Below, one piece after another: positions 13,628 to 47,680 of a stretch of DNA of 64,000 nt. Numbering within the stretch: position 1 is the stretch's first letter; each line of letters starts with the position of its first letter. Under the pieces are notes generated by a model. The model saw nothing but the letters and a program-made list of their open reading frames with translations. It was not told the origin of the DNA and searched no databases. The position numbers and the translations under genes were made by a program. The DNA lies in the NCBI GenBank assembly GCA_965224415.1, contig CBDCZB010000003.1, positions 380,807-444,806 on the forward strand, given 5' to 3'. Source of the stretch: Dehalococcoidia bacterium. GTDB lineage: Bacteria > Chloroflexota > Dehalococcoidia > Lucifugimonadales > JAGWBF01.

Positions 13628-13719
13628 GGAGGGATCGCATAGTGGTCTAGTGCGGGCGCCTGCTAAGCGCTTAGCCTGAGAAATCGGGCTCATGGGTTCG
13701 AATCCCATTCCCTCCGCCA
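13628..13719 (+). tRNA. tRNA-Ser(GCT)
   Basis: GGAGGGA acceptor, anticodon loop CTGCTAA, long variable arm, GGTTCGAATCC, encoded CCA. Confidence 0.95.
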
Positions 13720-13760
13720 AGTCCAGGCCATTCTAGGCGCAAATCAGCCTACTGCATAGA

Positions 13761-13785
13761 ATCGGTTATCACTTACGGTATCACT
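13761..13785 (+). promoter_or_regulatory. Putative integrase arm-type binding repeats (attL side)
   Basis: ATCGGTTATCACTTACGGTATCACT, 23/25 identical to 47508-47532 next to integrase 2. Confidence 0.7.
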
Positions 13786-14074
13786 GTCGACGTTGATCGT
13801 CTGGGCTGCCCATGTGTATGGTGGTTGTGGGCGTCGGATTGCAGCCCCGACTCCCGCGTTTCTGAGAGAAGGCCCAGCGGTTAAGCATCCCCGCCGGGCC
13901 TTCTCTTTTGTCTCAGGCGTGGAAGGTTCTTACAGCCTAACATCAACCCTTCACAGAATCCACGGAGAGCGCATTTCAGGGGTACAGGTGGGTTTTCCCC
14001 GCGCCCGGTCAACGCCGGTCGGCTGCTGAGCCACGATCGGATTCTGAAACGGGTCTGCGTCCTGACCGGTTCGC

Positions 14075-14210
14075 ACCGCCGTGATGAACCTGCGGAGCAA
14101 GCTGGACGAGGACGCGGACAAGCCCACGCTCGCCTTCAAGGAGCCGCGCGTAGGATACCGGATGCCGAAGGGGGAGACGGAGGAAAGCGTGAGCGGCGTG
14201 GAAGGATAGG
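14075..14210 (+). pseudogene. C-terminal fragment of OmpR/KdpE-type winged-helix regulator
   Basis: Translates VMNLRSKLDEDADKPTLAFKEPRVGYRMP. Confidence 0.55.
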
Positions 14211-14225
14211 GCGAGCGCCGTTACC

Positions 14226-14770
14226 TGTAGGCCGTCAGCGAAAATGGGACAACAGAGGGGGTAGAAAAACCCGAGAGATTTGAGGTGGGGTCAGCTCCCT
14301 GTATGAGGTAGAGCGCTTCAGATAGAGGAGCCAAAGATGTCCCAGACAGAAACAGGTAAAACAGCGGCCGCCGATGAACGCACAGAGGCGGCCAGGTCCT
14401 TCGTCAGAACGGTTAAGGCTGCTACTCGGCGCAAGTACACCCCGGAAGAGAAGATTCGTATCGTGCTTGAGGGCTTCCGCCGCGAGATCACGGTGAGTGA
14501 TTTGTGCAGGCGGGAGGGCATCAAGCCTCACTCCCACTACTCGTGGACCAAGGAGTTTATGGAGGCAGGGAAGGAGAGGCTTACCCGCGACAGCGTGCGA
14601 GACGCCACTAGGCAGGAGGTCCATCAGCTCAAGCGGGAGAACGGGGAGCTAAAGCAGTTGGTCGCCGATCTGTCCCTTTAGGTATATCATCTCAAAAAAA
14701 CGTCCATACCAGTGCCTCAGGGCGCCGGCGGTATCAGCAGATGAGTGGCGCAGAGAAGGCGGAGGCGCGT
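14226..14770 (+). mobile_element. Truncated IS3-family element (orfA about 14338-14681 with premature stop, A7 slip site, orfB lost)
   Basis: RRKYTPEEKIRIVLEG..LCRREGI HTH; TG start; CTCAAAAAAACG. Confidence 0.8.
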
Positions 14771-14799
14771 ATGCCGAAGCCCAACGGCAAGGTGTACAG

Positions 14800-15098
14800 G
14801 TGATTGGTCCGTTGACTTGGCGGAAGGGGAAGAAACCTAGTCGGCGGTTGTGGGTCAAGGCAAGGCCAGCGGCCCTAGAACGTGCCGGGCGGCGGTGTCG
14901 GAATTGCGGGAAAGCGGGCCGTCTTGAGGGGGATAGCCCATGCACGAGGCTAAAACGCGCTGTGTGTACGCCCTAGACGCCTTGCAGACGTTGTGTGTTA
15001 GCTGTCATTGGGCTAAGACCGCGCGGGAGAACTCCGGCCCTGGCATGGGACGTTCGGCATGGCGGGCCGTCCCGGCTGAGCGCATGGTCGACGCCTAG
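14800..15098 (+). pseudogene. Phage-type HNH endonuclease, frameshifted
   Basis: Frame 1 ..RAGRRCRNCGKAGRLE; second frame LQTLCVSCHWAKTARE; the expected VDH segment is missing. Confidence 0.7.
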
Positions 15099-15174
15099 CG
15101 TCTATGCCTAGAGATGACATTCTCACGGCGGCGGCAGTGAGGTGGAATCGCCTTTACGTTGCGGGAGCGCCTAA

Positions 15175-15530
15175 ATGACACCGCTGGAGACCCTCGAAAA
15201 TCGTGCATCAGAGATACGCGCCAGCCTGTCCGAACTTGGCGGACTTGAGGACTTCACGGATGAGACGCGCGCCGAACTTGCCGCCTTGAGGCGGGAGCGC
15301 CAAGACAACGAATCCAAGCGGAACGCGCTCAGGACAGCTGGTGACGGGCCTACGCCGCCCGTAGAGACGCCCAACGACGGGGAAGGTGGAACACCACCCC
15401 GCCTGCGTCGATTGCTCCAACTGGGCAACATGGGCGCGATGGTGGACGGCGTCATCGACAAGCGTTCCAGCTGCGACGTGGCCAACGAGGAAATGCGCCA
15501 ACACTGCGGCTTGGCCCCCGGTGGCCCCCG
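15175..15530 (+). pseudogene. N-terminal fragment of probable HK97-type major capsid protein
   Basis: Coiled-coil delta-domain-like start (LENRASEIRASLSELGGL..), follows HNH, truncated by IS21 remnant. Confidence 0.5.
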
Positions 15531-15539
15531 GGCAGGTTC

Positions 15540-17264: not shown

Positions 17265-18270
17265 CTTTAGGGGGCTTCCTTCCCCCCTTTAGAAAAACAC
17301 TCCCACTCTCTATATATAGATTCCGTCGCGTAAGCCCTTTTGAAAAAAGAATTATTTCCTGTCCACACTCTGGCGGACTCTCTCCAGCGTCCTCCCGCAA
17401 CCGCCGCAATGCAGGCGTCCTCATATGTGAGTTGATGACGCCGGCCCAGGCCCGCAGGATGCTTTTTAGGGCTGTCGGAGTCGACTTTAGGGGGGCTTCC
17501 TTTCCCCTTTAGAAAAACGGTCCCACTCTCTACATATAGATTCCGTCGCGTAAGCCCTTTTGAAAAAAGAATTATTTCCTGTCCAAACTCTGGCGGACTC
17601 TCTCCAGCGTCCTCCCACAACCGCCGCAATGCCGGCATGCTTATATGTGAGTTGATGACGCCGGCCCAGGCCCACAGGATGCTTTTTGCGGTCTGTCCCC
17701 GCGTGTACGCGGGTGCCGTTCCTGTGCTGCGCAATCCATGCCCAGTCCCGTTCCGAGTCCAGCAGCTCCACACTGATGGCCCAATGCCGTGCCTGGGGCG
17801 GAAACTCGCCTCTTGTTGTTGGGTCCTCGGCGTAAGTGCTCGCCCTGGCGCCCTTCCGGTCAAGACGCTCCTCCAGTTCACCGGCGCGGCGCAATTCACG
17901 ATGCATCTTGGGCCTATAGTCCCATAGGCAATTGCGCCTGAGGTCTCCAAGCCCTTCGTCGCCCTTGGAGCGCTCTGCTTCACTCGGCGTCAGGTCGGCC
18001 TCCCTCTCAAACTTGTCCTCTATAGGGCTGTCGGAGTCGCCTAAAGGGGGGCTTCCTTTCCCCCTTAGAAAAACACTCCCACTCTCTATAAATAGATTCC
18101 GTCGCGTAAGCCCTTTTTCGACTAACAAAATATTTCTGTCCACACTCTGGCGGACTCTCTCCAGCGTCCTCCCGCAACCGCCGCAATGCAGGCGTCCTCA
18201 TATGTGAGTTGATGAAGCCCGCCCAGGCCCGCAGGATGCTTTTTGCGGTCCACTCCCGCGTGTACGCGGG
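17265..18270. repeat. Three imperfect direct repeats of about 200-245 bp (17265-17467, 17468-17713, 18024-18270)
   Basis: Shared GGGGCTTCCTT..AGAAAAAC..AGATTCCGTCGCGTAAGCCC..CTCTGGCGGACTCTCTCCAGCG..CAGGATGCTTTTT. Confidence 0.92.
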
Positions 18271-19249: not shown

Positions 19250-19441
19250 ATGAGAATGAACGACAGACTTCTGCGTCGTCAAGAGGTTGAGGAACTTACC
19301 GGATTGAGCCGCGCCTCGATCTACAGGTGGATGGACAGCGGGGAATTCCCTCGGTGCGTCAGGGTCGGCTCCAAGGCGGTCAGGTGGAAGGAAAGCGACA
19401 TCACCGCTTGGATACAGTCCTGGCCGCCGGCTGCGAGTTAG
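19250..19441 (+). CDS. AlpA family excisionase/regulator
   Basis: LLRRQEVEELTGLSRASIYRWM..FP..VRW; AAGGAG RBS. Confidence 0.9.
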   Translation: MRMNDRLLRRQEVEELTGLSRASIYRWMDSGEFPRCVRVGSKAVRWKESDITAWIQSWPPAAS

Positions 19442-19447
19442 CGCGGC

Positions 19448-20641
19448 TCATCCACTGACGGGTGCGAACCGCTTAGTTGTTATGGGGCGCGACCGGGGCG
19501 TGAGGTAGTCCGCCCACTGCTGCATGAGCTTGCGGCGGCGGTCGAACAGGTCGGAGCGTGCGTACGCTTGCTCGACGCTCCCGCCCAGCTGATGCGCCAG
19601 AGCCGCCTCCGGGATCGCCCAGGCCGCATCCGTCCGTTCCATGGCCCAGGTCCTGAAGGACGATCTGAACCCGTGCACCGTCGTCCGGTCCGCAAGGCCC
19701 GTGGAACGGAGCGTCTTCGTCAGGGTCATGTCGCTCAGCGTCCGGCCAGGTTTCAGCGGGGACGGGAAGCATAGCCCAGAACCGTCTTCAAGTTGACGCG
19801 CCAGCTTCAACACTTCCAGGGCCCGGTCGCTCAGGGGAACCCGGTGCTCCACCCCCGCCTTCATGCGTGAGGCGGGGATCGTCCATGTCGCGCGCTTAAG
19901 GTCGATCTCGCTCCACGCTGCCCCCCTGGCCTCTCCGGACCGCGCCGCCGTGAAAACCAGGAACGTCAGACAACGCTTCGCGGCAAGCGACGCCCGGGAC
20001 GCATCGACGGTCTTGAGAGCCGAGCCCGCCTCGTGGTGGGGAAGCGCCGGGAGATGCGCTTTGATCTTGGGCATCGGCGGCAAGGCCCCGTCTATGGCTT
20101 CCCCCGCCGGATTGGCCTCAATCAATTCATTCGCCATGGCCCACCTGAATATCGTGCGCATCCTTTGCCGCACGCGCCGGGCGGTCTCGGGGCGCGTCGT
20201 CCATATGGGCGTGAGGACCTTCAACACATCGGCGCGGCCTATCGCGTCGATGGGCTTGTCTCCGATCTTGGGGAAGGCGTGTCGTTCGAGGGTCTGAATC
20301 CACGCTAGAGTGTGGCGTCCGTTGCGCCAACGAGGTTTGTTGACTTCGTGGACGGCATGGGCGGCCTCGCTGAAAGTGGGCGTCGCGGTCCTGCGCTTGT
20401 CCGCCGTCGGGTCCCTGCCGTCGCCGATCGCCTCACGGTTGTCGGACGCACGCTTCCTCGCCTGGGCCAGCGACACAGCCGGATACCCGCCCAGGCCGAT
20501 GTCCCGCCGTCGGCCGTCGACGGTGATCCTCTGCACCCAGCTCTTGCCGCCCGTCTTGCTTATGAACAGGTGCAGGCCGTCGCCGTCCGAGTAGCGGCCA
20601 GGGTCCTTGAGCGCCTTCACCCTTGTCGCCGACAGCTTCAC
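19448..20641 (-). CDS. P4-like tyrosine integrase 1 (adjacent to tRNA-Ala)
   Basis: Arm-binding N-terminus YSDGDGLHL, RSGE, HGFRSSFR, LAH, AY; GAGGAGG before GTG 20641. Confidence 0.95.
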   Translation of the reverse strand: MKLSATRVKALKDPGRYSDGDGLHLFISKTGGKSWVQRITVDGRRRDIGLGGYPAVSLAQARKRASDNREAIGDGRDPTADKRRTATPTFSEAAHAVHEVNKPRWRNGRHTLAWIQTLERHAFPKIGDKPIDAIGRADVLKVLTPIWTTRPETARRVRQRMRTIFRWAMANELIEANPAGEAIDGALPPMPKIKAHLPALPHHEAGSALKTVDASRASLAAKRCLTFLVFTAARSGEARGAAWSEIDLKRATWTIPASRMKAGVEHRVPLSDRALEVLKLARQLEDGSGLCFPSPLKPGRTLSDMTLTKTLRSTGLADRTTVHGFRSSFRTWAMERTDAAWAIPEAALAHQLGGSVEQAYARSDLFDRRRKLMQQWADYLTPRSRPITTKRFAPVSG

Positions 20642-20834
20642 GTTGTGCCGCCTCCTCAATCTCTTACCACATAAATTACCACACATGAAGCGAGACAACA
20701 AGGGATTCCGGGAGATTGGAATGGAGAACGCAGGGGAGACGATTCCAGGGTTGGCGACGCCTGGTGCAGCTACGAATCGGAGCTTTGCTGAGACCTGAAG
20801 AGGCGGGCAGGGAATGGGCGAGAATTGATTGGTT

Positions 20835-20910
20835 TGGTGGAGCTGGGGGGACTCGAACCCCCTACCTCTTCAATGCCATTGAAGCGCTCTCCCTGATGAG
20901 CTACAGCCCC
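20835..20910 (-). tRNA. tRNA-Ala(GGC)
   Basis: GGGGCTG acceptor with G3-U70, anticodon loop ATGGCAT, GGTTCGAGTCC, CCA. Confidence 0.95.
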
Positions 20911-20968: not shown

Positions 20969-22231
20969 TCAAGGTGTGATGACGTCGAAACCGGTGTACG
21001 GCCTCAGAGCTTCGGGGATCACTATAGAGCCGTCGGCCTGCTGGCAGTTCTCCATGATGGAGATGACAACCCTCGGCAACGCCAGCCCCGAACCGTTGAG
21101 AGTATGGACGAAAGCCGGTCTGCTTCCTTCTTCCGGCCTGTATCTGAGACCTGTCCGCCGCGCCTGGAAGTCCGTGCAGTTGGAGCAGGAACTCACCTCC
21201 AGCCACTCGCCGCAGCCCGGAGCCCACATCTCCAGGTCGTAGGACTTGGCCGAGGCAAAACCCAGCTCTCCCGCGCACAACCGGAGCACACGGTAGGGCA
21301 ACCCCAGCCGACGGCAAACATCCTCGGCGTCTCCCAACATCCTTTGAAGCTCATTCTCAGAGGAATCCGGCTCCACCAGCTTGTACATCTCGACCTTGTC
21401 GAACTGGTGCACCCGCTTGATCCCTCGGGTGTCTCTCCCCGCTGCCGCTTTCTCCCGGCGGAAACAGGGAGTGTAGGCCGTATAGTTAAGGGGAAGCTCC
21501 TCCGCCTTGAGGACTTCTCCCTTGTGGATGCTGGTGAGCGGCACCTCGGCCGTCGGGACCAACCACAGATCGTCTTCAACGTCCCGGTAGAGGTTGTCAC
21601 CGAACTTGGGCAGGTTTCCGGAGCCTTCCATGATCTCGCGCTTCACTACAGCCGGGAGCAAGACCTCCGTGTACCCGTGCTCGGTCGTGTGGAGGTCCAG
21701 CATCCAGTTAATCAAGGCCCGCTCAAGCCGGGCGCCCTGACCCTTGAGCAGGAAGAAGCGGGAACCCGCCAGCTTCACTCCCCGCTGGAAATCGATTATT
21801 CCCAGCCGCTCTCCCAGGTCCCAATGAGGCAAAGGCTCAAAGTCGAACGTGGGAATCTCGCCCACTGTGTGCACCACCACGTTGTCTTCTTCACCCAAAC
21901 CATCGGGCACATCGTCCAGCGGGAGATTCGGCAGCTCCAAGAGCAGGTCTCTTATCTCCGAGTCCATCTGGTCGACTTCCTGCTCCGACGCCTTGATGTC
22001 ATCCCCCACTTGCCGCATCTCGGCGATCAGCTCCGGCGGACGCTCCTTCATAGAGGAGATTTGACGGCTGGTCTCGTTGCGGCGGGCCCGGAGCTCGTCC
22101 CCTGTCTGAATCAGCTTGCGTCGGCGGGAGTCAAGGTCAAGGAGCTTTTCGATGGGCGGGTCTTCACCTTTACGGACCAGAGCTTGAGCGACAACTTCCG
22201 GTTGGTTTCTGATGAGTTCTATAGAGAGCAT
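20969..22231 (-). CDS. serS: Serine--tRNA ligase
   Basis: PTAEVP, FRREK, RVHQFDKVE, EVSSCSNC, HTLNGSGLA. Confidence 0.98.
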   Translation of the reverse strand: MLSIELIRNQPEVVAQALVRKGEDPPIEKLLDLDSRRRKLIQTGDELRARRNETSRQISSMKERPPELIAEMRQVGDDIKASEQEVDQMDSEIRDLLLELPNLPLDDVPDGLGEEDNVVVHTVGEIPTFDFEPLPHWDLGERLGIIDFQRGVKLAGSRFFLLKGQGARLERALINWMLDLHTTEHGYTEVLLPAVVKREIMEGSGNLPKFGDNLYRDVEDDLWLVPTAEVPLTSIHKGEVLKAEELPLNYTAYTPCFRREKAAAGRDTRGIKRVHQFDKVEMYKLVEPDSSENELQRMLGDAEDVCRRLGLPYRVLRLCAGELGFASAKSYDLEMWAPGCGEWLEVSSCSNCTDFQARRTGLRYRPEEGSRPAFVHTLNGSGLALPRVVISIMENCQQADGSIVIPEALRPYTGFDVITP

Positions 22232-22234: not shown

Positions 22235-23731
22235 CTATTTCTTTGACCTCATCTGAGGGAACAACAGCGCGTCTCTGAGCGTGTTCTGTCCCGTCAGGAG
22301 CATGACTAGGCGGTCTATTCCAATGCCCAGACCGCCCGTGGGAGGCATCCCATGTTCCAGGGCCTCCAGGTAGTCCATGTCCGTGCGGTCGGCTTCCTCT
22401 TCCTGGAACTGTTCCCTGAGTTGTTCCTGTTCGGCAAACCTCTCGGCCTGCTCATGGGGGTCGTTCAACTCGCTGTAGGCGTTGGCCAGCTCCATGCCTC
22501 CGGCAAACCCCTCGAACCTCTCCACCAACGCAGGCTCGTCCCGTTTCTCCTTGGCTAAGGGCGACATCACTTTGGGATAGTCCATGACAAAAACGGGCTG
22601 GATAAGGGTAGGCTCCACGGTGGAAGAGAATATCTTGTCATACACCTTGAAGGGCGGCACGTTGCGCAGATCTATACCCATGCCTCCGGCGGTGGCGGCC
22701 AACTCCTCGATAGGCTTATAGCCCCGGATGTAGGGGTCTATGTCAAGCCCGGAACTGCTCTTGATTGCGTCGCAGAACTTCACTCTCCGCCACGGCGGCG
22801 TAAAGTCGATTTCCATGTCCCGGTACACCGTCTTCGGCGACCCCAGAGCGTCGGAGGCCACCTCAAAGACCATCTCCTCCACCATGTTCATAACGTCGCC
22901 ATAGTCGGCGTAAGCCTCGTAGCTTTCCAGCAGCGTGAACTCCGGGTTGTGGTCCTGGTCCATGCCCTCGTTGCGGAAGACCCGGCCTATCTCGTACACC
23001 TTGTCGAACCCTCCTACGATGAGCCTCTTGAGGTAGAGTTCGGTGGCTATACGGAGGTACAAGTCCTCGTCCAGGACATGGTGATGTGTCACAAAGGGCC
23101 TGGCGAGGGCTCCCGCCGGTATGGGCACCAGCACTGGCGTTTCCACTTCTATAAATCCTCTGGCGTCCAGGAACGACCTGATCCCGTTGATTATTTTGTT
23201 GCGTTGTATGAAGACCGTCTTGATCTCCGGGTTGGCGATGAGGTCCAGATGCCGTTGGCGGTAGCGCACCTCCACGTCCCTGAGGCCGTGCCACTTTTCA
23301 GGAAGAGGGCGCATGGACTTAGAAAGGACCTTCATCTCCCTGACTTCGACGGTCACCTCTCCGGTGCGAGTGCGGAACAGGGGACCGCTGACGCCTAGGA
23401 AGTCGCCAATGTCCAGGTCTCTGACCAGCGGGAATTCATCCGCCAGCACGTCCCTACGGAAATGGGCTTGGATTTTGCCTGAAGAGTCCCGCAGGTCCAG
23501 GAATGCAGCTTTGCCCATGATTCGCATGGACATGATGCGACCGGCCACTGAAACAGTCTGGTCCGAATGGCCGTCTGCAGACTCCGACTCGTGGTCAATG
23601 AAAAGGGATATGGCTTGTTCAGCCGTGCAAGTCCGGCGGTAACGCGCCGGATAGGGGTCTATTCCCTTGTCTCGGAGTTGGTCGAGCTTGTCCTGGCGGC
23701 TTCTGAGGAGCTCTTCTCCACGCTCGGGCAT
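22235..23731 (-). CDS. lysS: Lysine--tRNA ligase (class II)
   Basis: LPEKWHGL, YLRIATELYLKRL, FRNEG..HNPEF, GMPPTGGLGIGIDRL. Confidence 0.98.
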   Translation of the reverse strand: MPERGEELLRSRQDKLDQLRDKGIDPYPARYRRTCTAEQAISLFIDHESESADGHSDQTVSVAGRIMSMRIMGKAAFLDLRDSSGKIQAHFRRDVLADEFPLVRDLDIGDFLGVSGPLFRTRTGEVTVEVREMKVLSKSMRPLPEKWHGLRDVEVRYRQRHLDLIANPEIKTVFIQRNKIINGIRSFLDARGFIEVETPVLVPIPAGALARPFVTHHHVLDEDLYLRIATELYLKRLIVGGFDKVYEIGRVFRNEGMDQDHNPEFTLLESYEAYADYGDVMNMVEEMVFEVASDALGSPKTVYRDMEIDFTPPWRRVKFCDAIKSSSGLDIDPYIRGYKPIEELAATAGGMGIDLRNVPPFKVYDKIFSSTVEPTLIQPVFVMDYPKVMSPLAKEKRDEPALVERFEGFAGGMELANAYSELNDPHEQAERFAEQEQLREQFQEEEADRTDMDYLEALEHGMPPTGGLGIGIDRLVMLLTGQNTLRDALLFPQMRSKK

Positions 23732-23735: not shown

Positions 23736-24203
23736 CTACCGGATTTCCAGTATCTCCAGGTTTGTCGTACCGGCCGGGGCCGTCACGCTGGCAATGTCTC
23801 CTATGTGCTTCCCCAACAGCGCCTTTCCGGTGGGAGATACGTTGGATATCTTGCCTTCCGCCGGGTCGGCTTCGGTGCTCCCCACGATGGTGTAGCGGAC
23901 TTTCTTTCCCGTGGCGGTTTTTACAGTCACGCGCGATCCGATATCGACAGTGTCCGAAACTCCCGACTTTTCAGTGATGATGGCGGCGTTAGCCAAGGCG
24001 TTCCCAACCATCAGGATGCGCCCCTCGATAAACGCCTGCTCGTTTTTCGCTTCTTCATACTCGGCGTTGTCGACAGTGCCGCCGATTTCCTTGGCCTTAT
24101 ATATCCGCTCCGCGACCGCCTGCCTGCGTGCGGTGGAAAGCTCTTCATATTCAGCTTTCAGCTTAACCAAACCCTCTTTCGTCAAGTAAGTCGGCTCGGC
24201 CAT
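23736..24203 (-). CDS. greA: Transcription elongation factor GreA
   Basis: LTKEGL, DNAEYEEAK, ISNVSPTGKALLG. Confidence 0.97.
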   Translation of the reverse strand: MAEPTYLTKEGLVKLKAEYEELSTARRQAVAERIYKAKEIGGTVDNAEYEEAKNEQAFIEGRILMVGNALANAAIITEKSGVSDTVDIGSRVTVKTATGKKVRYTIVGSTEADPAEGKISNVSPTGKALLGKHIGDIASVTAPAGTTNLEILEIR

Positions 24204-31467: not shown

Positions 31468-32179
31468 CTAAAGGCGTTCTTTCTTCAAGTACAACCTGCA
31501 TATCAGGTTAGGTGGAATCCTAAACTTGGCCCCATGATTCCGTAGCCCAACGCTCCCAGGCTTGGCCTCTCTGCAATCAAAGTCCACGGCAATCGAGCCG
31601 CGCAAGACTTCATATACAAAGTCCGCCAGATGGAACGTCTCGAAAGCGTCTGCCTGAATGAACCGCACGGATTGCCCCTTGCGTTCGCCTTTCACCAAGA
31701 GCAACCGCCTGAGCTTCGCCCCAGCTGCCGTTATCAATTCCTCGTGCGACCGGTAAGGCACAGGGCCGTTCCCCTTTAGCCTACGCACCACCAGTTGCCC
31801 TCCACTGTCCTCGACCTTGAAACGGTCTGAGCGTCCTTTGATGGTATGCCGGAAACTCAGACGGCCCTGCTTGTCCTTCCAGCCGTACTTCCGCACCATG
31901 TATCGCATGATTGCATCAGGGCCGTCAGGTTCCTTGTGAAACAGCGTTACAAGGCCAGTTCTGTCCGTGTGCCACTTCAACTCCCAACCAACGGCGTCGG
32001 GAATGTCCATGCCCCCGGCGGTCAGCCCCAGCAGGTCTTCCAGGAACACCCCAGGGCCGCCGGAGCCGCCATAGTGGGAGTCAACGGGCATATCACATGC
32101 CAGCCTTGGTGAGAATTACGCCTCTGACACGCTCAAAGAGTTCCCCTTTTGTGCGGGGCGGGCCTGATGGGAGAGTCAC
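31468..32179 (-). pseudogene. MvaI/BcnI-family restriction endonuclease, frameshifted near the N-terminus
   Basis: GGPGVFLEDLLGL..PDAVGWELK..TLFHKEP..RNHGAKFRI; upstream part in another frame. Confidence 0.75.
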
Positions 32180-32735
32180 TGTATCAGCCTCCGTACGGCG
32201 GCTATACTTTCACGGGCCACCTTGCAGTAGTCCTCGGAGTTTTCAAGCCCTATCCAGTCTCTACGGGCCGTTTCAGCCGCTATAGCTGTACTCTCTGAAC
32301 CCATGAACGGGTCAAGCACGATACGGGCTGTGGTGGCCTCTATGCACCTCTGGGCCAACTCTACCGGGAACGGCGCCGGATGGGGATTGTCCCCTTCTTG
32401 GGGAATGTGCCACACGTCCCCTTGCGAGTTCGCCTGGGGAGCCAACACAAAATCAGGCTTGGCTATGAGGTAGATAACCTCATACGTGGGAAGGAAGTAT
32501 CCCTTGTTGAAGTTGATCCCCCTTTCCGTTGCCAAATGATTATCTGGCGGACAGGGAAGCGAGCAACTATGTCGGCTCGGTCCTGGAGTGAGCCGCCCTG
32601 GACGCGCCACTTGTGGTTGTAGAAGATTGCCCCATCTTCCCGAAGGACCCGCATCATGGCGGTCAGACAATTCCGTTGCCATTCCACATATTCGTCGTGG
32701 GGCATGGCATCATCGTGGTCGGAGTAGCTGGAGGC
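32176..32735 (-). pseudogene. N4/N6 DNA methyltransferase, 5'-truncated and frameshifted
   Basis: HPAPFPVEL, VLDPFMGS, FPVRQIIIW split over two frames; no TSPPY region. Confidence 0.85.
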
Positions 32736-32801
32736 CCGTCCGGCGCCGGCGGCTGAGAATATTGTAGAATGCGGTGGATACATGGATATAAGGAGATTAG
32801 G

Positions 32802-34462: not shown

Positions 34463-34887
34463 TGAGGTGGACGCGGCTTTTCGGACAACTGTTTAAGTGA
34501 AAGTTCTGCTCCAAAACTAATGACCGGGGTGGGTGTCGAAGAAGAGAGGAGCGGGACGTGTCAAAAGACCGGAGAAAGCACAGCGCATCATTCAAGGCGA
34601 AGGCGGCCCTGTAAGCGATCAAGGGCGAGGAAACGGTGGCCCAATTGGCCGCCCGGCACGAAGTCCATCCCGGTCAAATCCGGATGTGGGGAAAGACCCT
34701 GCTGGAAGGAGCGGCCGGTGTCTTCGGCGGAGACCGCGACAAACGCCAAAAGGCCGATGAGGCCCTTGTTGCCCCGCTCTACCAGCAAATCGGCCGACTC
34801 GAAGTGGAACGGGATTTCTTGTGCGAGAGAGGGCCAGCCCATAAGCCGGAAGTGGCGTCGGGAGGTGGTGGGCCGGAGTGTACCGAA
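34463..34887 (+). mobile_element. Degenerate IS3-family left end and orfA, truncated by IS1182
   Basis: TGAGGTGGAC IR; orfA homologous to 38895-39179 with an internal TAA. Confidence 0.8.
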
Positions 34888-36543
34888 CTGAGCCTGTCTC
34901 AGAAGGGGATTTGTAGACAGGTTCACTCTGACACGAGGGTCAGATCCAGGCGATGAAATGGTGAGGGGTCGCCGTCAATTGCCTCAGTTCACGAGACAGG
35001 ACAAGGCTTCGGACCGTGAAACGGATTGCTCAAGGCTCGGGAGGAGCTCCACTCCCACCACAGGGTGCGCAGGTTGAAAGCGGTGGCCAACATGATCCAC
35101 TCGGCCGCCACGTTGGTGAGGCCGCGCAGCAGGAACCTCCGTGCGCCCTGTTGCTCCTTGATGATGCCGAAGACCGGCTCGCACAGATGCTTTCTCAGCC
35201 GGTAAGCCTCTTTGGCGACGGAGGTAGACATCCAGGCACGATGACGGCGCAGCGCTGCGTCGTGCGGCCCTATGGCCAGGCTTCGCCCGATCTCCCTGGC
35301 CTTGGTACAGGCTCTGAAGGCCGGGCATGCCTGACAGACGGCGCCGGAAGCCCGGTACAGTCGCAACGGGACTCCGTTCGCATGCTGTATGCGGACGAAC
35401 TTGAGCGTCTGTCCCTGCGGACACGTAAAGCTGTCGCTGTGCTCGTCATAGGTGAATTGGTCCTTGTGATACGGGTCTTTGAGGAACCGTTGCCGTGCCT
35501 CTGACACCACCACCTGCTGGCCTCGACGGTCACACTCCGCCAGGTGACTGGCGGAGAAGTATCCGGCGTCGGCCAACGTCATCTGCGACTTCGTCCCGGT
35601 CGTCTCTTCGGACTGCTCCACCATCGGCGCCAACAGGGAGTTGTCATTGGCCTGATCCACCACGTCCACGGCGGTGACCAACATGCCGGAAGTCCCCTCT
35701 TCTGTCTTTGTGGCCGAGACCATAGCCTGGGCGTTGTAGCCAGCCACGATGCCCTGCCGTCCCTTCATCAGCCGGGCCTCCGGGTCGGTCAGGTTGATGC
35801 GCTTGTGGCGCTTTTGACTCCCAAGGTCGGCCATCGCCTGCTTCACCTGCTCTCTCAAGACCTCCTTGTCGGCCAACTTCTCAGGCAGATTGACGGCAGA
35901 GGCATCCTCTCCCGCTTCGTTCTGTGCCTCGAGATCGGCTATCGTTCTCTCCAACCGATCCAACAGCCCTCTCAGTCCCTCAGCATCGTAGCTCCTGTTC
36001 ACTGAGGCGTTGGCGACCACCTTCGTACCATCCACCGCCTGGACCGCCAGATCCACCAACTCCTTGGCCACCGCCGTGCGCACCGTCCGCTCGAACAGCT
36101 TCCTCATAGCCTGTCGATGCCCTTTGTAGAACCTCCACAGGGTGTTGTGGTCCGGATGCTGCCACCCGGTCAGCCACAGGTACGGTATCTGATCCCGGCA
36201 GGCCGCCTCCAGCTTCCGGCACGAGCGCACACCGGTCATGAAGCCGTACAGCCACACACTCAACAGTGCACGGGGGTGGTCCGCCGGCGCTCCCAGCACG
36301 TCACCGTCTATGTCTACGCCAAGTTCAGCCCAGCCACCTCGATCCAGAGCACCGACAAACTCGCCTACGAACCGTGCGGGATGATTCAATGGCAGCAGTT
36401 CGTCAAGTGTCGGCGGCAGCATCCACATCTGCTCTCGGCCCATATCTCGAAGCGGCATATCGGCATCTCCCCAACTGATGTCGCTTCGAATGTACACCCG
36501 ACGACATACCCGTTGCCAGATCAGACTTCTGAGACAGGCTCAG
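34888..36543 (-). mobile_element. IS1182-family insertion sequence
   Basis: Perfect inverted repeat CTGAGCCTGTCTCAGAAG / CTTCTGAGACAGGCTCAG. Confidence 0.9.
34989..36458 (-). CDS. IS1182-family transposase
   Basis: SCRKLE, PDHNTLWRF, VDGTK, TDPEAR, GYNAQ, LADAGY, EPVFG. Confidence 0.93.
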   Translation of the reverse strand: MPLRDMGREQMWMLPPTLDELLPLNHPARFVGEFVGALDRGGWAELGVDIDGDVLGAPADHPRALLSVWLYGFMTGVRSCRKLEAACRDQIPYLWLTGWQHPDHNTLWRFYKGHRQAMRKLFERTVRTAVAKELVDLAVQAVDGTKVVANASVNRSYDAEGLRGLLDRLERTIADLEAQNEAGEDASAVNLPEKLADKEVLREQVKQAMADLGSQKRHKRINLTDPEARLMKGRQGIVAGYNAQAMVSATKTEEGTSGMLVTAVDVVDQANDNSLLAPMVEQSEETTGTKSQMTLADAGYFSASHLAECDRRGQQVVVSEARQRFLKDPYHKDQFTYDEHSDSFTCPQGQTLKFVRIQHANGVPLRLYRASGAVCQACPAFRACTKAREIGRSLAIGPHDAALRRHRAWMSTSVAKEAYRLRKHLCEPVFGIIKEQQGARRFLLRGLTNVAAEWIMLATAFNLRTLWWEWSSSRALSNPFHGPKPCPVS

Positions 36544-36569
36544 CTGCGAACTTTGTATCTTTGGCTATA

Positions 36570-37694
<1,125 letters not shown>

Positions 37695-37998
37695 CTTTCA
37701 AGACGGTTGCTTTTCGCTGGGAAGTTCCCCTATAACGGACAAGATGGGAGATTTGGGAGGGACACGCAAGTCTCCCAACCTTAAGGGTTTGAAGCTACTG
37801 CTTTCCAGTCATAGGCTTCGGTTCAGGTCCGCTCCAGTGCACGAGAAGGCAACACCAATTATCGATGCAACGCCCCTGCTAAGACAAGAAGCGCCGCAAC
37901 GGTCCATACGGTATTTCCCTGAAAACGGAAGCCTACAAGTTAGGTGGACCCGGTCAGTTGGACAGGATATAGGTGGAATTAAGCGAGAGTCCCGCTGC

Positions 37999-38898
37999 TC
38001 ATGCCAATGATACCAACACCCGTTCCGGTGGATCTCCCGTCACCTTTGAACTATCCCCCGTGGCATTCCTGGCATCGTGGAACACCTCGGCCGGGGTCCG
38101 GTAGCCCAAGGCCTGATGGGGCCTCTGGTCGTTGTAGAAACGGAGGTAGGCGCCCAGTTCCCTCCTGGCTTCACTAGCGTTGGCGTAGGCTTTCAGGTAC
38201 ACCTCCTCGTACTTCACCGTGCGCCACAGCCGCTCCACGAAGATGTTGTCGGCGTAGCGCCCCTTCCCGTCCATGCTGATCTTGACCCCATGGTCCTGCA
38301 GCGCCTGGGTGAATTCCAGGCTGGTGAATTGACTCCCCTGGTCGGTGTTGAAGACCTCCGGCTGGCCTTGCCCCAGCGCCTCCTTCAAGGCGTCGACGCA
38401 GAAGTCGGCCTCCAAGGTGTTGGACAATCGCCAAGCCACCACGCACCGGCTGTGCCAGTCCATGATGGCCACTAAGTAGAGGAATCCCCGGGCCATGGGC
38501 AGGTAGGTGATGTCGGCGGCCCACGCCTGGTTGGGCCGGGTAACCCTGGCGTTCCTCAATAGGTAGGGATAGACTCGATGCTCCGGCGCCGGCCGGCTGG
38601 CGCGTGGACTCCGGTAGATGGCCCGCAGCCCCATGATGCGCATCAGCCGCCGCACCCGCTTCCGGCTCACGCACCTGCCCTCCCGGGCCAGCCAGACCTT
38701 CATGCGCCTCGACCCGTAGAAGGGTGTATCCAGGCACTGCCTGTCCATGGCTTGCATCAAGGCCAGGTTCTCGCCGGAGGCTTCCCTGGGTCGATAATAC
38801 AGGCTGGAACGGGCCACTCCCAGCAGGGCGCACTGCCGCGCTGTCGACAACGATGTGCGCTCCCGATCCACCATCCCTCGCCGCTGGGCCAGGCTCAT
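37999..38898 (-). CDS. IS3 transposase OrfB (DDE)
   Basis: WAADITY, NTDQGSQF, DNIFVERLWRTVKYE. Confidence 0.93.
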   Translation of the reverse strand: MSLAQRRGMVDRERTSLSTARQCALLGVARSSLYYRPREASGENLALMQAMDRQCLDTPFYGSRRMKVWLAREGRCVSRKRVRRLMRIMGLRAIYRSPRASRPAPEHRVYPYLLRNARVTRPNQAWAADITYLPMARGFLYLVAIMDWHSRCVVAWRLSNTLEADFCVDALKEALGQGQPEVFNTDQGSQFTSLEFTQALQDHGVKISMDGKGRYADNIFVERLWRTVKYEEVYLKAYANASEARRELGAYLRFYNDQRPHQALGYRTPAEVFHDARNATGDSSKVTGDPPERVLVSLA

Positions 38899-39179
38899 GG
38901 ACCGGACCTCTCCGACAAGAAATCCCGCTCCACCTTCAGCTGTCCGATTTCCTGGTACAGCCGGGCGATCAGGGCGGCATCGCTACTGGCCTTCTGCTCT
39001 TGCCCGTTGCTGAACACGCCGGCGGCACCCGAGGTGAGCGCTTTCTTCCAAGCCTGAATCTGGCTGGGGTGGACCTGGCGCCTGGCCGCCAGTTGGGCCA
39101 CCGTGTCCTCCCCCTTCACCGCCTCCAGGGCCACCTTGTCCTTGAGAGCCGGGTTGTGCTTTCTCCGTTGTTTCGACAT
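38895..39179 (-). CDS. IS3 transposase OrfA
   Basis: KVALEAVKG..QVHPSQI HTH; ATGA overlap with orfB. Confidence 0.9.
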   Translation of the reverse strand: MSKQRRKHNPALKDKVALEAVKGEDTVAQLAARRQVHPSQIQAWKKALTSGAAGVFSNGQEQKASSDAALIARLYQEIGQLKVERDFLSERSGP

Positions 39180-39733
39180 TTCCCACTCCTCTTTGACAGC
39201 AACCGCTGCCCTCAGTTTAGGAGCAGGACTCTCGCTTAGCTGCCTGTCCAGTTTCCTGGGTCCACCTCACGGGGCACCCACGACGTAACGCACCCCACCA
39301 TCCTGTAGGGGGCTTCGCCCTCGTCTCCCGACCTTCCGACCCAGCCTTAGGACCACTCGCTCCCATGCAACTCCGACGTGGCCGGACTCTGGCCCCACAG
39401 CCCGACGTTCCGCCTTGTACTTTTACAACTTCGCCGGAACCAGCCCATTCATAAATTGCTCGCAGAAACGGCTCCGACTTCACTCCTTCTGCCCCTGTTT
39501 CAGGTTCAAAACGGCCCCAGACTTGTATTTCTACAACTGCCGCAAATCCCTGTACACGGGTACGACACCCAATTCGGCCTCCGAAGCCACTCCGGACGGC
39601 CTCAGACGGGGACTCGACACCCCCGGATAATTGCTTGATGCAATGTAGTTGCCTCGGCCCACGCCACGGCTCCCGCTGGGAGCTTTGGCTCCAAATCTGT
39701 GGAACCAGACCTTTCACCAAGCCTTGAACGCCC

Positions 39734-43695: not shown

Positions 43696-43701
43696 GGGCC
43701 G

Positions 43702-45342
43702 TGTTGTTGTTCTACGATTATGTCAGTAGCTAACTGGTCAGCGAAAATGTCATCCCATGGAAGGAGTGACATTGACGCAGAAGGAGCAGACGAGACTTCA
43801 GGTGCTCAACAGCGTTCTGGCAGATCAGGTGGCGGTATGTCAGGCGGCCGAGGTCCTGGAAGTGAGCGAACGTCACATGAGGCGTATTCTGGCGGCCTAT
43901 AGGCTATAGGAAGGAGGGTGCCGCCGCACTCGCCCACGGGAATCGTGGCCGCCGACCGGCCAACACCACGACGGAGACCAAGATGACTTACGTGGTGCAG
44001 CTGGCCCGCACTCGCTACGCTGGAACGAACCATACGCATCTGACCGAGTTGTTGATGGAACGGGAGGGCATCGACCTGAGCCGCTCTACGGTACGCCGCA
44101 TCCTGGTCAGCGCCGGTATGGACAGCCCCCGCCGCCGTCGGCCGCCCAGACACCGTGTCCGGCGCAAACGCATGGCCCAAGAAGGGATGCTGGTGCAGAT
44201 AGATGGGAGCCACCATCCGTGGCTGGGGGAGCAAGGACCCCGGTTCGCCCTGCTGTTGGCCGTGGACGACGCCACCGGCACGGTGCCTGACGCTCGGTTC
44301 AGTCAGGAGGAGGACACCCGCGGCTACTTTCTTCTCATGGAGGGGTTGATCCGGCGATGCGGAATGCCGCTGGCCGTCTACAGCGACCGCCGCCCGGTCT
44401 TCAAATTCACCGGCGATATCGACCGTTACCCGGCAGGCCCGACTCAGTTCGCCCGGGCGATGGAGGAGCTTGGGATCCGGCAGATCTTCGCCAGATCACC
44501 CCAGGCAAAGGGCAGGGTGGAGCGTGCTGCCGCCACCTTCCAGGACTGCGATGATGAATCCCGGGGCGCCTGGCTGGAGCCGCCACCATCCCTGAGGCAA
44601 ACGAGGTCCTGAATAGCTTCCTGCCACGATTCAATAAGAGAAGTGTGGGGTTCCGGCAGAGGACTCAAGCGTTGCTTACCGCCCTATGGAGTCATCGGTG
44701 TCCCTGGATCAGATACTCTGCTTCAAGCGCCGCGGCAAGGTGGCCAGGGACAACACCGTCAAGCACAACTGGCGTACCTTGCAGCTGCTGCCTGGTAAGG
44801 AGCGGCCTAGCTACGCCGGAGCGCAGCTGGAGGTCCATGAGCGTCTGGACGGTCAGCTCCTTGTGCAGTACCAGGGACGCACGATCCCTACACAGGAGGC
44901 GCCGCCGCGCCCTGGAATTCTCCGTGCCTCCAATGGTCCTCTCCGATATGGCCCCGGCCTTGACCGTAGAGTCAACAGGGTGGGCAACCACCCCAAGGAG
45001 AGCCTGGCATCCCTCGGCGTCATTGAGGCCGACAGTGCCACATTGAACGGCGACGGCAAAGTTCGCAAGCCTCCGGCATCGCCACGCAGGAAACCCACGC
45101 CGCGACAGAGGGTTCGGTGGAAGGCCGTGCAGCAGGCTAAGCTTCGGGGCCTCTCCATTCGGGCAATCGCCAGGGAGTTGGGCATCCACAGGAACATGGT
45201 CCGCAAGTACGCCAAAGCCAAGAGCCCGCCTATGATGCGCACCAAGGTCAGGTCCCGCGTATCACAGTCCGATGGTATGACAGTGGCCTAGATGGACATT
45301 TTCCCTGACCACTCAGGCGGACATAATCGCTGGACATCGACA
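43702..45342 (+). mobile_element. ISNCY/IS481-like element with pseudogenised transposase
   Basis: Imperfect IRs (CGATTATGTC../..GACATAATCG); QIDGSHH, VYSDR, SPQAKGRVER; frameshifts including the CTATAGG duplication near 43900. Confidence 0.82.
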
Positions 45343-45406
45343 ATCCATAGGCTCAACTTCCAACCTATGGATGGCCGCGGCCGGTCCAGTTTGCGACCGC
45401 CGAATG

Positions 45407-45990
45407 TCAGCGACTACCCGCCCGCACGGTCCACTTTACCGCCGCCTTTGACACCTGCCCAGCCCGATACGCCACTTGGCGGAACAAAGCCTTTGCCGTT
45501 GGGTCTCCGCACGTCACTTTCAGGGATAGACTCTCACGCTTGGCCAAGGACAACGGGGGATATTGCCAAATTCCATTTAGGTCGGTATCATTCAATCGGA
45601 TTTTCCGTATCTAAAACCCGTCTTTGAGTGTATGAAAACCCGTCATTGACCGTAGGATTCTCGGTGGTTTCGGAGTCCATGTCATCGTCGGTTTCCGTAT
45701 CTGAAACCCGACTTTGACTTTCAAGGTCCAGGTCAAATCTGAGGGCGTATTAGTTGGGGCCGTGATGCCGGGGCATAGCCTCAATCAGCCCTTCATCCCG
45801 AAACCGCTTCAACGCTTTAACGACGGTATCCCGCGTTACCCCAACTTCCTTGGCGAGCGATTCCTGTTTGCTGTCCTTGCCCCATAACCTGCCCGTTCCC
45901 GCTCGGAAAGCCAGATAGCGCAACACTGCCTTTTGTGTGGACTTATGCCGTAGGACCTTAGGATGCGTTCTGCGCCCACTGTCTACGTTC
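45407..45990 (-). pseudogene. HTH replication-initiator-like gene with internal iteron-like repeats, interrupted by stops
   Basis: QESLAKEVGVTRDTVVKALKRFRDEGLI winged HTH; (TTTCC)GTAT..AAACCCG..TTGA repeats at 45601-45720. Confidence 0.55.
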
Positions 45991-46012
45991 ATTCCTGGGC
46001 CGCACGGGGCCG

Positions 46013-46207
46013 TCACTCTGAGGCCCCGGAGCGAGCATCGCGTAAATCAATGTAGGCCAGAATGTCCGCAACCCTGAAACGGACGGCTTGCGGCCCTACC
46101 TGTATGGCCTTGGGGAATTCAGGGTCACGACGCCAACGGGATAAGGTGCTCCTGGTGATGCCCAAAAGTTCGGCTGTTTCAGCCGGAGTAACAAGGACTT
46201 TCTCCAT
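46013..46207 (-). CDS. AlpA-like excisionase
   Basis: TPAETAELLGITRSTLSRWRRDPEFPKAIQVG..VRF. Confidence 0.85.
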   Translation of the reverse strand: MEKVLVTPAETAELLGITRSTLSRWRRDPEFPKAIQVGPQAVRFRVADILAYIDLRDARSGASE

Positions 46208-46342
46208 CGCACACACTCCCGCCACAGGTTAGTCGATAGGTCCCAGCTGGCGCGGGTGGTCGGGCCCTCTGGCTCGGATGGGTATGTCCTCCCCAACTAC
46301 CATATCAGCCGTTTCTGTCCCATGTCAACCCAACATATGTCA

Positions 46343-47509
46343 CTATGTGTTCAGGTAGTCGCTCCAAGCTTGCATCAGGCCCACACGGGCGTCAAACAAG
46401 CTAGAGCGGAAGTAGGCGGCTTCAACCTGATTCTTGACGGCGTGGGCAAGGGCAGCTTCCGCCGTCTCGCGGCTGGCCCCCGATTCAGCCGCCCAATCCC
46501 TGAAACTCGATCGGAACCCGTGGGGTACGCAGTCTATCGAATTCTCCCTGAGAAGCTTTGACAAGGTATTGTCCGACAACTCACGGCCCCTAGAGGCTGG
46601 GAACACAAGGCCCCTATCGTCTGACAGGTCCTTGGCCTGTGCCAGCACGTTCAAGGCCCCGCTCGATAGGGGTACGCGATGCTCGACACCGGATTTCATG
46701 CGGTCGGCTGGCACAGTCCAGGTTGACGATTCCAGGTCAATCTCTGACCACCTAGCCCCGCGCACTTCCCCTGACCGGCTGGCGGTCAAGGCTATGAATT
46801 CCAGGGCATACACAGACGCCCGATACGCTCCGGTTGACCGGATCCGCTCCAAGGCCGCGGCAACCTCAGAGTAGGGCAAGGCCCGTTGATGTTCCCGCTT
46901 GTGTCCGTTCTTGGGGAGGGCGGCCCCAAGGGCGTCGCCAGCCGGATTGTCTTGACGATGGCCTTGGGCAACCGCCCACTTCATAACGGCGCCTATCCGT
47001 TGCCGGACTCTACGGGCAGTCTCCCGCTTATCGTTCCATATCGGAGTAAGGACCGCCAGCACGTCCGCCGTTGTGATCCGGTCAACCCGCTTGCCGCCCA
47101 GCTTCCCAAGGGCGTAATCTCTCATGCTGGCCCGCCATTGGGCCTCAGACTTCCCCGAATCCCGCCAGCTGGCAGCGTGAATCGCCAAGACGGATTCCAG
47201 GGCCTCAGAGAACGTCGGGGCCTTGGCTTCTCTGTGATTTATGTCTTGGCCTTGGGAGACGGCCCTACGATTCGCCAGGGCAGCCGCCCTAGCTTCGTCC
47301 AGGGTTACGATGGGGTAGGCCCCTAAGCCGATGTTGACAGGTCCTTGGCCTGAAACGATAATCCGTTGTGACCATGTTTTTGACCATCCCCCGCCAGCCC
47401 GTTCCTTCACCAACAAGGACAGCCCGAATCCCCCACGCCCATCGCCATACCGTCCAGGATGGGCAACCCGCTCGGCAAAAGACTTGGAAAGCTTGCTCGG
47501 ACGGTCCAT
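46343..47509 (-). CDS. P4-like tyrosine integrase 2
   Basis: GRYGDG, RSGE, HGFRSSFRDW, LAH, AYFR; catalytic residues intact. Confidence 0.95.
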   Translation of the reverse strand: MDRPSKLSKSFAERVAHPGRYGDGRGGFGLSLLVKERAGGGWSKTWSQRIIVSGQGPVNIGLGAYPIVTLDEARAAALANRRAVSQGQDINHREAKAPTFSEALESVLAIHAASWRDSGKSEAQWRASMRDYALGKLGGKRVDRITTADVLAVLTPIWNDKRETARRVRQRIGAVMKWAVAQGHRQDNPAGDALGAALPKNGHKREHQRALPYSEVAAALERIRSTGAYRASVYALEFIALTASRSGEVRGARWSEIDLESSTWTVPADRMKSGVEHRVPLSSGALNVLAQAKDLSDDRGLVFPASRGRELSDNTLSKLLRENSIDCVPHGFRSSFRDWAAESGASRETAEAALAHAVKNQVEAAYFRSSLFDARVGLMQAWSDYLNT

Positions 47510-47680
47510 CGGTTATCACTTCCGGTATTACTTACTTGCATAATACACCATGTAACAGGGTGTTACAAGATGGTTCACAGGACACTTCCAGGCTGTAGTT
47601 GGCTAGCTAGGAAAGATTGCATGGTAAAGACACTTCTCAAAGGGAGATAGTACGGGCTGATTGCGGTGATTCCTCCGCCA
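47508..47680 (+). other. Putative attR: arm repeats 47508-47532 and tRNA-Ser 3' core (ATT)CCTCCGCCA 47669-47680
   Basis: Arm 23/25 identical to 13761-13785; 9-bp exact match to 13711-13719. Confidence 0.6.

Follow-up and report, generated by a model that had tools for sequence, protein, structure and literature searches.

How can essential genes come to lie between the attachment (att) sites of a mobile element, and what becomes of the element once they are there? The question is raised by a stretch of 64,000 nucleotides (nt) from a Dehalococcoidia bacterium, called here the window (genome G000, contig C3, positions 380807-444806; the 3.18 Mb assembly, in 5 contigs, is 92.65% complete). Between the transfer RNA (tRNA) gene for tRNA-Ser(GCT) and miaB, about 34 kb of this DNA carry an integrase gene (integrase 2) and enclose serS, lysS, greA, tRNA-Ala(GGC) and a second integrase (integrase 1) with its neighbour alpA. 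A sequence-only reading of the window had proposed that matching attL and attR sites of integrase 2 bracket these genes, and the empty sites found in four of four genomes of the same genus support the proposal. We consider it probable that an integrase-2 island at tRNA-Ser(GCT) later received the core genes through a rearrangement in a genome rich in insertion sequences (IS), and that the island is now effectively locked in place.

Borders of the island

The island and its flanks have the following features (window coordinates, strand, feature).

Upstream of 13628: genes for aconitase and an AsnC-type regulator (Pfam)
13628..13719, +: tRNA-Ser(GCT), integration target (called by ARAGORN; single copy in the assembly)
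13711..13719, +: attL core CCTCCGCCA, formed by the final 9 nt of tRNA-Ser; the alignments of the congeners stop at 13719
13761..13785, +: putative P' arm, a tandem arm-type pair (GGTTATCAC / GGTATCAC); like words stand beside the tRNA in loci L066 and L093
46343..47509, -: integrase 2, with arm-binding, central and catalytic domains (Pfam, family alignment)
47508..47532, +: putative P arm, a tandem arm-type pair abutting the integrase-2 start codon (47509), downstream of a promoter-like site at 47568-47540 (-)
47672..47680, +: attR core CCTCCGCCA; congener alignments resume at 47672
47708..48982, +: miaB, whose true ATG lies 28 nt past the attR core
From 47708 onward: miaB, nadA and nadC, the gene order to the right of the island

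We aligned to the window the DNA found upstream of miaB in four same-genus genomes. All four alignments run through aconitase, asnC and tRNA-Ser, end at 13719 and restart at 47672 with a 9-bp overlap, and in all four genomes tRNA-Ser directly adjoins miaB, which is the adjacency that the sequence-only reading had proposed to look for, so that its own condition for refutation turned out in its favour. The empty sites of these congeners read tRNA-core-miaB leader (B-O-B'); the left junction of the window reads tRNA-core-island (B-O-P') and its right junction island-core-miaB leader (P-O-B'). Because the congener alignments stop and resume at these points, and tRNA-Ser abuts miaB there, 13720-47680 is a precise insertion flanked by attL and attR of integrase 2. 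The two junctions indicate insertion by site-specific recombination, which left both att sites. The direct repeat of the tRNA-Ser 3' end measures 9 bp (13711-13719 and 47672-47680), and tRNA-Ser itself is intact. The count of CCTCCGCCA is unremarkable when taken alone: the window has 4 matches, a number also reached by 3 of 100 shuffles.

In relatives the same leader directly follows tRNA-Ser, and the island thus separates miaB from its former upstream DNA. As the insertion cuts miaB off in this way, its transcription would now have to start within the P arm of the island.

The comparison was extended to the miaB loci of 29 relatives. tRNA-Ser(GCT) lies directly upstream of miaB in 24 of them, and a partial tRNA-Ser 3' end stands just before miaB in four of the five that lack the intact adjacency (loci L018, L021, L025 and L032, from genomes G012, G018, G010 and G026). 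Because of these partial ends, the data point to the tRNA-Ser/miaB site as a recurrent integration hotspot for other elements; no relative of integrase 2 was found within 1.5 kb in any of the five exceptions. Tandem TGTGGGAA words precede the partial tRNA-Ser 3' end in L018 and L021.

The enclosed core genes

Domains were assigned with Pfam (45 + 9 window open reading frames, ORFs) and PHROGs (11 window ORFs), and tRNA genes were called by ARAGORN, which found 51 in the assembly. The enclosed block comprises the following genes.

20835..20910, -: tRNA-Ala(GGC), putative target of integrase 1 (ARAGORN; single copy)
20969..22231, -: serS (Pfam; only copy found in the assembly)
22235..23731, -: lysS, class II (Pfam; only copy found)
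23736..24203, -: greA (Pfam; one 42%-identical paralogue on contig C4)
24476..30533: genes for a PNPOx-like protein (+), a family-5 solute-binding protein (SBP; -), an MpaB/Lcp-like protein (-) and an MMPL transporter (-) (Pfam)

A search within the genome itself returned one serS and one lysS, the other matches being different synthetases at 23-40% identity, and each of tRNA-Ala(GGC) and tRNA-Ser(GCT) is represented by a single one of the 51 tRNA genes. The count of copies that had been suggested as a check thus gives single serS and lysS genes and, for greA, the one paralogue mentioned.

The block 20832-30705 is conserved in the congeners G001, G002 and G003, at positions other than that in the window: it lies 92 kb downstream of miaB in G001 and 655 kb away in G003. 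Its identity is 92.3-92.7% to G001, 89.5-93.3% to G003 and 83.8% to G002; the flanks of the island give 91.5-94.0% (90.4-95.7% for the wider flank), 90.5-94.1% and 85.4-91.0%, respectively. Because block and flanks are equally close to the congeners, the core block is vertically inherited DNA that changed place, and since the tRNA-Ala-to-MMPL block of the congeners lies elsewhere at this background identity, the core genes appear to have been moved into the element. In the window the block now lies inside that element. The idea that the element carries extra copies of serS, lysS and greA has against it the single copies of serS, lysS and tRNA-Ala(GGC) and the orthology, at background identity, between this block and the only block of the congeners.

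The surroundings of the block vary among congeners in every genome examined. Beyond tRNA-Ala, its neighbour in G001 and G003 is a segment homologous to C4:1089-1095 kb of G000; in G001, block and segment are separated by 45 kb of IS-rich DNA and by a truncated copy of integrase 1. In G000 the C4 segment lies 9.5 kb from the contig end and is followed by ordinary genes and IS3 fragments; the block is absent there.

That the ancestral neighbour now stands near a contig end without the block would fit another history, in which the block was captured in a closely related strain, the 34-kb unit then moved into tRNA-Ser, and the native block was lost as redundant. The intact look of attL, attR and integrase 2 would agree with this, as would the fractional depth of the left part of the island in other samples (given below), which is expected of an element that comes and goes. 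However, the block is as diverged from the congeners as the flanks are, so the donor must have been nearly the same species; capture inside the donor requires the same rearrangement; and the 34 kb retain no genes for conjugation, packaging or replication. We consider such a transfer between strains unlikely.

Integrase 2 and its relatives

Integrase 2 is full-length, with 388 amino acids (aa), and its relatives match residues 1-388. Pfam recognizes an arm-binding domain (PF13356, E=1.3e-8), a central domain (PF22022, E=1.3e-24) and a catalytic domain (PF00589, E=5.7e-17). A PDB sequence search with integrase 2 matched entry 2khv to the central domain (E=1.2e-13) and gave no match to the catalytic domain. 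The protein keeps R245, K272, H330, R333, H356 and Y366, which are invariant in 31 aligned members, integrase 2 included; going by known motif patterns, we take these columns to have the R-K-H-x-x-R-H-Y catalytic roles of tyrosine recombinases. Its earlier description as intact seems justified by the full length and by the invariant residues.

Relatives of integrase 2 share 46-65% identity with it and come from metagenome-assembled genomes of many phyla. No closer copy was found, the best being 65% identical among genome contigs and 63% among metagenome contigs (65% over partial-length matches). Because integrase 2 is unique in the G000 genome, and no relative above 57% identity was found within its family's genomes, it was acquired.

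We compared 160 loci of relatives, 80 of them from the genome collection, and 131 had at least 420 nt upstream of the integrase. No tRNA lies next to the integrase start in the 80 genome-collection loci. An opposite-strand tRNA is found downstream, within the available flank, in 8 of the 131 loci, and in all eight the 3' 14-15 nt of that tRNA recur without a mismatch at 155-192 nt before the integrase start (one element assembled twice may account for two of the eight). These eight islands measure 6.6-10.7 kb, and their targets are tRNA-Ser (6), tRNA-SeC (1) and tRNA-Arg (1). The att core of the window, 163-171 nt upstream of integrase 2, has the same geometry. Since all eight loci repeat the tRNA 3' end upstream of the integrase, the integrase of this family lies at the island end far from the target tRNA, which is mostly tRNA-Ser. 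The assemblies that contain the family loci (L062-L141 and L164-L243) are labelled Gammaproteobacteria, Alphaproteobacteria, Acidobacteriota, Gemmatimonadota, Dehalococcoidia and others.

The islands of four relatives that could be mapped carry either defence-type cargo (DprA/SLOG, a helicase, PD-(D/E)XK, an AbiU2-like protein) or satellite-type cargo (AlpA, AAA_25, capsid, portal, terminase). When 12 window ORFs were compared by tblastn with the 80 genome-collection loci, only integrase-overlapping frames and IstB-like fragments matched.

Putative arm-type sites

The motif ATCGGTTATCACTTACGGTATCACT lies at 13761-13785, 41 nt past tRNA-Ser, and a copy identical at 23 of 25 positions lies at 47508-47532, separated from the attR core by a spacer of 139 nt. 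Allowing up to 3 mismatches, the window has 2 matches and each of 100 shuffles has 0; allowing up to 6, these two copies are the only ones in the whole 3.18 Mb assembly, which settles the concern that the motif might be common genome-wide. Apart from the motif, the two regions share no further similarity. The positions that had been given for tRNA-Ser, the motif pair, the 9-nt repeat and the tandem TTACCACA words near integrase 1 are all correct.

GTGATA occurs within -70..+5 of the integrase start in 34 of 100 relatives, against 31 of 3740 background windows, and the closest relatives of integrase 2 have a GTGATAAC-N4-GTGATA dyad 10-25 nt before the start codon. Words of the GTGATAAC type are also found inside the tRNA-proximal arm of L066 and L093. 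Because GTGATA-type dyads precede the start codon in the closer relatives, the 25-bp motif appears to be a pair of arm-type sites of the integrase-2 family. Furthermore, the dyad may double as an operator of integrase 2, since the promoter-like site listed above lies just upstream of it. Sub-clades of the family have their own dyad words before the start codon.

Since the motif copies differ at 2 of 25 positions and the tRNA-Ser/miaB site is a likely hotspot, with a partial tRNA-Ser 3' end in four of five exceptions, one could imagine two separate integrase-2-type insertions in a tandem array that is now reduced to its outermost sites, attL on one side and attR with its integrase on the other. 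However, there is no internal core-plus-arm site (the only other internal CCTCCGCCA is on the opposite strand and lacks arm words), integrase 2 and its motif are unique in the genome, and the core genes would be left unexplained. We regard this as highly improbable, the least probable of the alternatives considered here. The related suggestion of the sequence-only reading, that two independent insertions left ends which now form a recombinable pair, conflicts with the presence of integrase-2-type arm words at both ends, as integrase 1 uses TTACCACA.

The integrase-1 module at tRNA-Ala

The second integrase and its neighbours lie to the left of serS.

19250..19441, +: alpA, of the excisionase/regulator type, convergent with integrase 1 (Pfam PF05930; PHROGs excisionase families)
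19448..20641, -: integrase 1, P4-like (GTG start at 20641 deduced from an upstream GAGGAGG)
20664..20683, +: putative arm-type pair of integrase 1, TTACCACA twice (words at 20664 and 20676; 150 nt from tRNA-Ala)

Integrase 1 is 50% identical to integrase 2. It had been said to have the same layout as integrase 2, and this is true of the tandem TTACCACA words 150 nt from tRNA-Ala and not of the far end, where a distal partner site is lacking: a distal repeat of tRNA-Ala gave no match at up to 6 mismatches in 24 nt within 13000-20800, the window has no second TTACCACA pair, and both are also absent at the end of contig C4. Integrase 1 is thus a separate remnant module without a distal site and, because it has neither the partner repeat nor a second arm pair, it would be unable to excise by itself.

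For the stretch 19118-20911, which comprises alpA, integrase 1 and the tRNA end, contig C5 has a counterpart of 97% identity at tRNA-Ala(CGC) (C5:431284-433083). Because alpA adjoins integrase 1 and is duplicated together with it on C5, it belongs to the integrase-1 module and not to integrase 2, which lies 27 kb away; AlpA had been put forward as the partner of integrase 2, and this assignment is not supported. The C5 region 424170-433082 (locus L151) is a complete 8.8-kb island of the integrase-1 type at tRNA-Ala(CGC); its far end, 8.8 kb away, carries 15 nt of the tRNA end as a direct repeat along with another TTACCACA pair, so that pairs stand on both arms. An orphan arm at C2:127326-127534 was considered as a partner of the window's integrase 1 and dropped, being 86% like the C5 arm and at congener positions unrelated to the block.

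A 3.8-kb stretch of G001 (C1:1110757-1114541) is 98.5% identical to G000 C3:15048-18832 and truncates the integrase-1 homologue in G001. As the background between the two species is about 92%, this identity suggests a recent exchange of a mobile segment.

Contig and depth support

Read support consists of short assembled contigs of public runs aligned to window positions 12.5-32.4 kb, for which contig depth is a weak measure; stretches for which no bridging contig is listed count neither way. The best-matching run, which shows no differences from the window, has an even depth of 17-27 over this range; one of its contigs crosses the end of an IS3 fragment at 14768 and another, of 4.3 kb, crosses the right end of the block. 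Contigs of three studies in all cross this right end, at 30705, and attL is crossed by a contig of another study (13691-14255). From 13720 to 39730 there is no repeat of more than 97% identity longer than 1.8 kb.

These observations bear on the possibility of an assembly artefact, that is, a chimeric contig joined via repeats, in which attL and attR enclose the core block in no real molecule. Of the 5 contigs of the assembly, C1 and C5 start in an IS630 copy, and three tandem IS630 copies stand at 39.7-43.7 kb of the window. Moreover, the right half of the island is outside the contig-supported range, and other samples suggest more than one arrangement. On the other side, the long interval without near-identical repeats leaves little room for such a join, independent contigs cross attL, 14768 and the right end of the block at even depth in the best run, and about 50 other IS630 copies were resolved inside contigs by the assembler. 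In addition, a wrong IS630 join would leave attL contiguous with integrase 1, tRNA-Ala and serS. An artefact therefore seems distinctly improbable to us.

In three other samples, flank depths of 25, 13 and 22 are accompanied by block depths of 22-29, 6-10 and 16-22. The DNA at the left of the island (13720-17100) reaches 9-15, 2-15 and 6-10 in the same samples, around 30-50% of the flank. No attB-type loose end at 13719 appears among the contigs listed for 12.5-32.4 kb, the attR side being outside this range.

The uneven depth of the left part among samples could be expected if the unit were still mobile and integrase 2, perhaps with the AlpA of integrase 1 or with an 88-aa protein encoded downstream of it, excised a 34-kb circle, so that the essential genes would serve as hostage or travel between strains. 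The intact catalytic signature and full-length gene of integrase 2, the promoter-like site upstream of it, and the retention of both arm pairs and of the 9-bp core would all be in line with this. Nevertheless, no excisionase adjoins integrase 2, AlpA is tied to integrase 1, and the interior consists of the remains of IS elements. The contigs over 12.5-32.4 kb, with the attR side outside, show no junction of an excised form, and the low depth concerns the DNA itself and not the junction alone, which fits strains without the element better than excision. We think it very improbable that the unit still moves in this manner.

Contigs of two runs join 17260-17264 approximately to the exact tRNA-Ala 3' end (20834/20835), skipping 3.57 kb with a set of short repeats, alpA and integrase 1. 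These joints have sides of 22-26 nt and inconsistent depths, and a depth step is seen near 17.1-17.5 kb in two other runs; they may represent a variant without the integrase-1 module, or repeat noise. Together with a further short-sided joint, from 13718 to 21385, they have depths of 96, 34 and 5 and are uninterpretable.

Other contents of the island

The remaining features of the island are mostly IS elements and their remains.

14226..14768, +: orfA part of a truncated element of the IS3 family, with 93% identity to copies on C3 and C4
15997..17424, -: endonuclease/exonuclease/phosphatase domain fused to an IstB (IS21 helper) fragment in one ORF (Pfam, PHROGs)
17265..18270, no strand: three copies of a repeat of about 200 bp found only at this locus
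31468..32783, -: MvaI/BcnI-like restriction endonuclease and N4/N6 methyltransferase, the latter split in two frames (Pfam)
34463..39270, no strand: IS nest with an IS3-like remnant, an IS1182-like element (18-nt perfect inverted ends, 34888/36543), IS110 and IS3
39731-40959, 41243-42472 and 42469-43696, -: three IS630-like copies of a 52-copy family
43702..45342, +: remains of a transposase gene, 70-74% similar to C3:22458-25298
45750..46016, -: winged-helix protein of 88 aa, encoded downstream of integrase 2; it does not resemble AlpA or Xis and is not conserved in the islands of relatives

The 3.18 Mb assembly contains the IS630-like element, of 1228 bp, 52 times in full length and with at least 99% identity, which looks like a recent IS burst, and the 34 kb hold IS elements or fragments of several further families. 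Among the Pfam- or PHROGs-scanned ORFs of the window, no structural, packaging, replication or conjugation genes were found, and the sole replication-related signal in the window is a weak replication-initiator-like winged helix (E=1.7e-6). In the restriction-modification region the endonuclease gene appears intact and the methyltransferase frames overlap (Pfam profile positions 16-96 and 93-220); other samples have 1-2-nt indels at 32062 and 32111. A 19-nt similarity between 17260 and 39298 was considered as a recombination site and rejected, since the similarity lacks significance and the 200-bp repeat has no copies outside its one locus. Elsewhere in G000, a region of about 10 kb occurs in at least five diverged copies on C2, C3, C4 and C5 (for example C5:576274-586782 and C4:34031-43202), with 73-85% identity to a segment of G003, and two of the copies lie at contig ends.

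Discussion

The history that we favour begins in the G000 lineage, after its split from the sampled congeners, when a small genomic island with the P4-like integrase 2 entered the 3' end of the tRNA-Ser(GCT) gene that precedes miaB. This insertion left attL (tRNA 3' core and P' arm pair) and attR (P arm pair, spacer and 9-bp core). Later, a chromosomal segment consisting of the decayed integrase-1/AlpA remnant, tRNA-Ala(GGC) and serS-lysS-greA-PNPOx-SBP-MpaB-MMPL would have moved in. Both junctions coincide exactly with the congeners' empty site, so the element must have been there before the block. We infer that the block arrived via recombination among insertion sequences; the simplest route would be recombination between IS copies, by two inversions or by excision and re-insertion of the segment. 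The remains of IS elements have largely taken the place of the element's own cargo. A cell that excised the circle and then lost it should die, since attL and attR enclose its only copies of serS, lysS and tRNA-Ala(GGC); the island would thus be effectively locked and integrase 2 silent or no longer selected. Among the three explanations offered by the sequence-only reading, an island locked in by captured core genes is thus the one that fits best.

Several observations weigh against this history. No flanking IS pair, target duplication or pseudo-att site was found at the borders of the moved segment. Contig support covers 12.5-32.4 kb, and a misjoin is possible in the part outside it (32.4-47.7 kb), which includes the three tandem IS630 copies. 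Because the depth of the left part of the island falls below that of the flank in the three other samples while block depth is full, there is a hint that the arrangement may be polymorphic, with only part of those populations having the element's left part. As the assembly is 92.65% complete and in 5 contigs, a second serS or lysS could lie in unassembled DNA. Pfam and PHROGs gave no AlpA/Xis family among the ORFs at 43.8-46.0 kb, beside integrase 2. Finally, integrase 2 differs from 30 relatives at three otherwise invariant columns (I90, G135 and V376), a number within the range of 3-5 such departures found in the other members of its family.

The recombination mechanism is an ordinary one, and it is the configuration, by its content, that is unusual. 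In a full-text literature search, judged from titles and the openings of abstracts, we found no report of aminoacyl-tRNA synthetase genes that have their only copy within an island bounded by att sites. Such borders are normally regarded as the divide between accessory and core DNA, and here they enclose essential genes that occur once in the genome; an automated island caller would therefore assign serS, lysS and the tRNA to the mobile cargo. The locus also offers a natural test of the fate of an integrase once excision is lethal, whether silencing, decay or retention, and shows how rapidly core genes can be shuffled into mobile DNA in genomes rich in IS elements. Moreover, an integrase family with tRNA-distal geometry and a conserved arm-site dyad is documented across several phyla. 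If integrase 2 were still active, with the sole serS, lysS and tRNA-Ala(GGC) on an excisable 34-kb circle that holds essential genes hostage or carries them between strains, which we judge quite improbable, the partial depth of the island in other samples would reflect ongoing turnover. The most likely history is an ordinary rearrangement in an IS-rich genome, and its likely consequence an island that cannot be lost.

Among known systems, the closest are the tRNA-integrating islands of the P4 and CP4-57 type, which have a P4-like integrase with AlpA. Integrase 2 has the same three domains (PF13356, PF22022 and PF00589), the insertion in the window lies at a tRNA 3' end rebuilt by a direct repeat, and tandem putative arm-type sites are present on both arms; integrase 1 with AlpA at tRNA-Ala fits the type closely. 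In contrast, integrase 2 is tRNA-distal, its arm pair abuts the start codon, no AlpA or Xis lies beside it, and the interior holds, in place of accessory cargo, core genes that occur in one copy. Islands of the integrase-2 family itself (L066, L067, L093, L131, L133, L178/L181 and L243) share the geometry and the GTGATA-type dyads of the window. However, they measure 6.6-10.7 kb versus 34 kb in the window, have direct repeats of 14-15 bp versus 9 bp, and have no cargo in common with the window, which holds host core genes.

Chromids, plasmids made indispensable by acquired core genes, offer a further comparison, since there too essential genes were relocated onto mobile DNA that then cannot be lost. 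The unit described here differs in being an integrated, non-replicative island, with relocation within one chromosome region. A last comparison is with the 'grounded' or domesticated prophages and islands, described in PMC6379469 as mobile elements without their own functions, fixed in the chromosome. Compared with elements so described, the att sites and the integrase of the window look intact, and its fixation would come, without any loss of the ends, from the essential content that it has enclosed.

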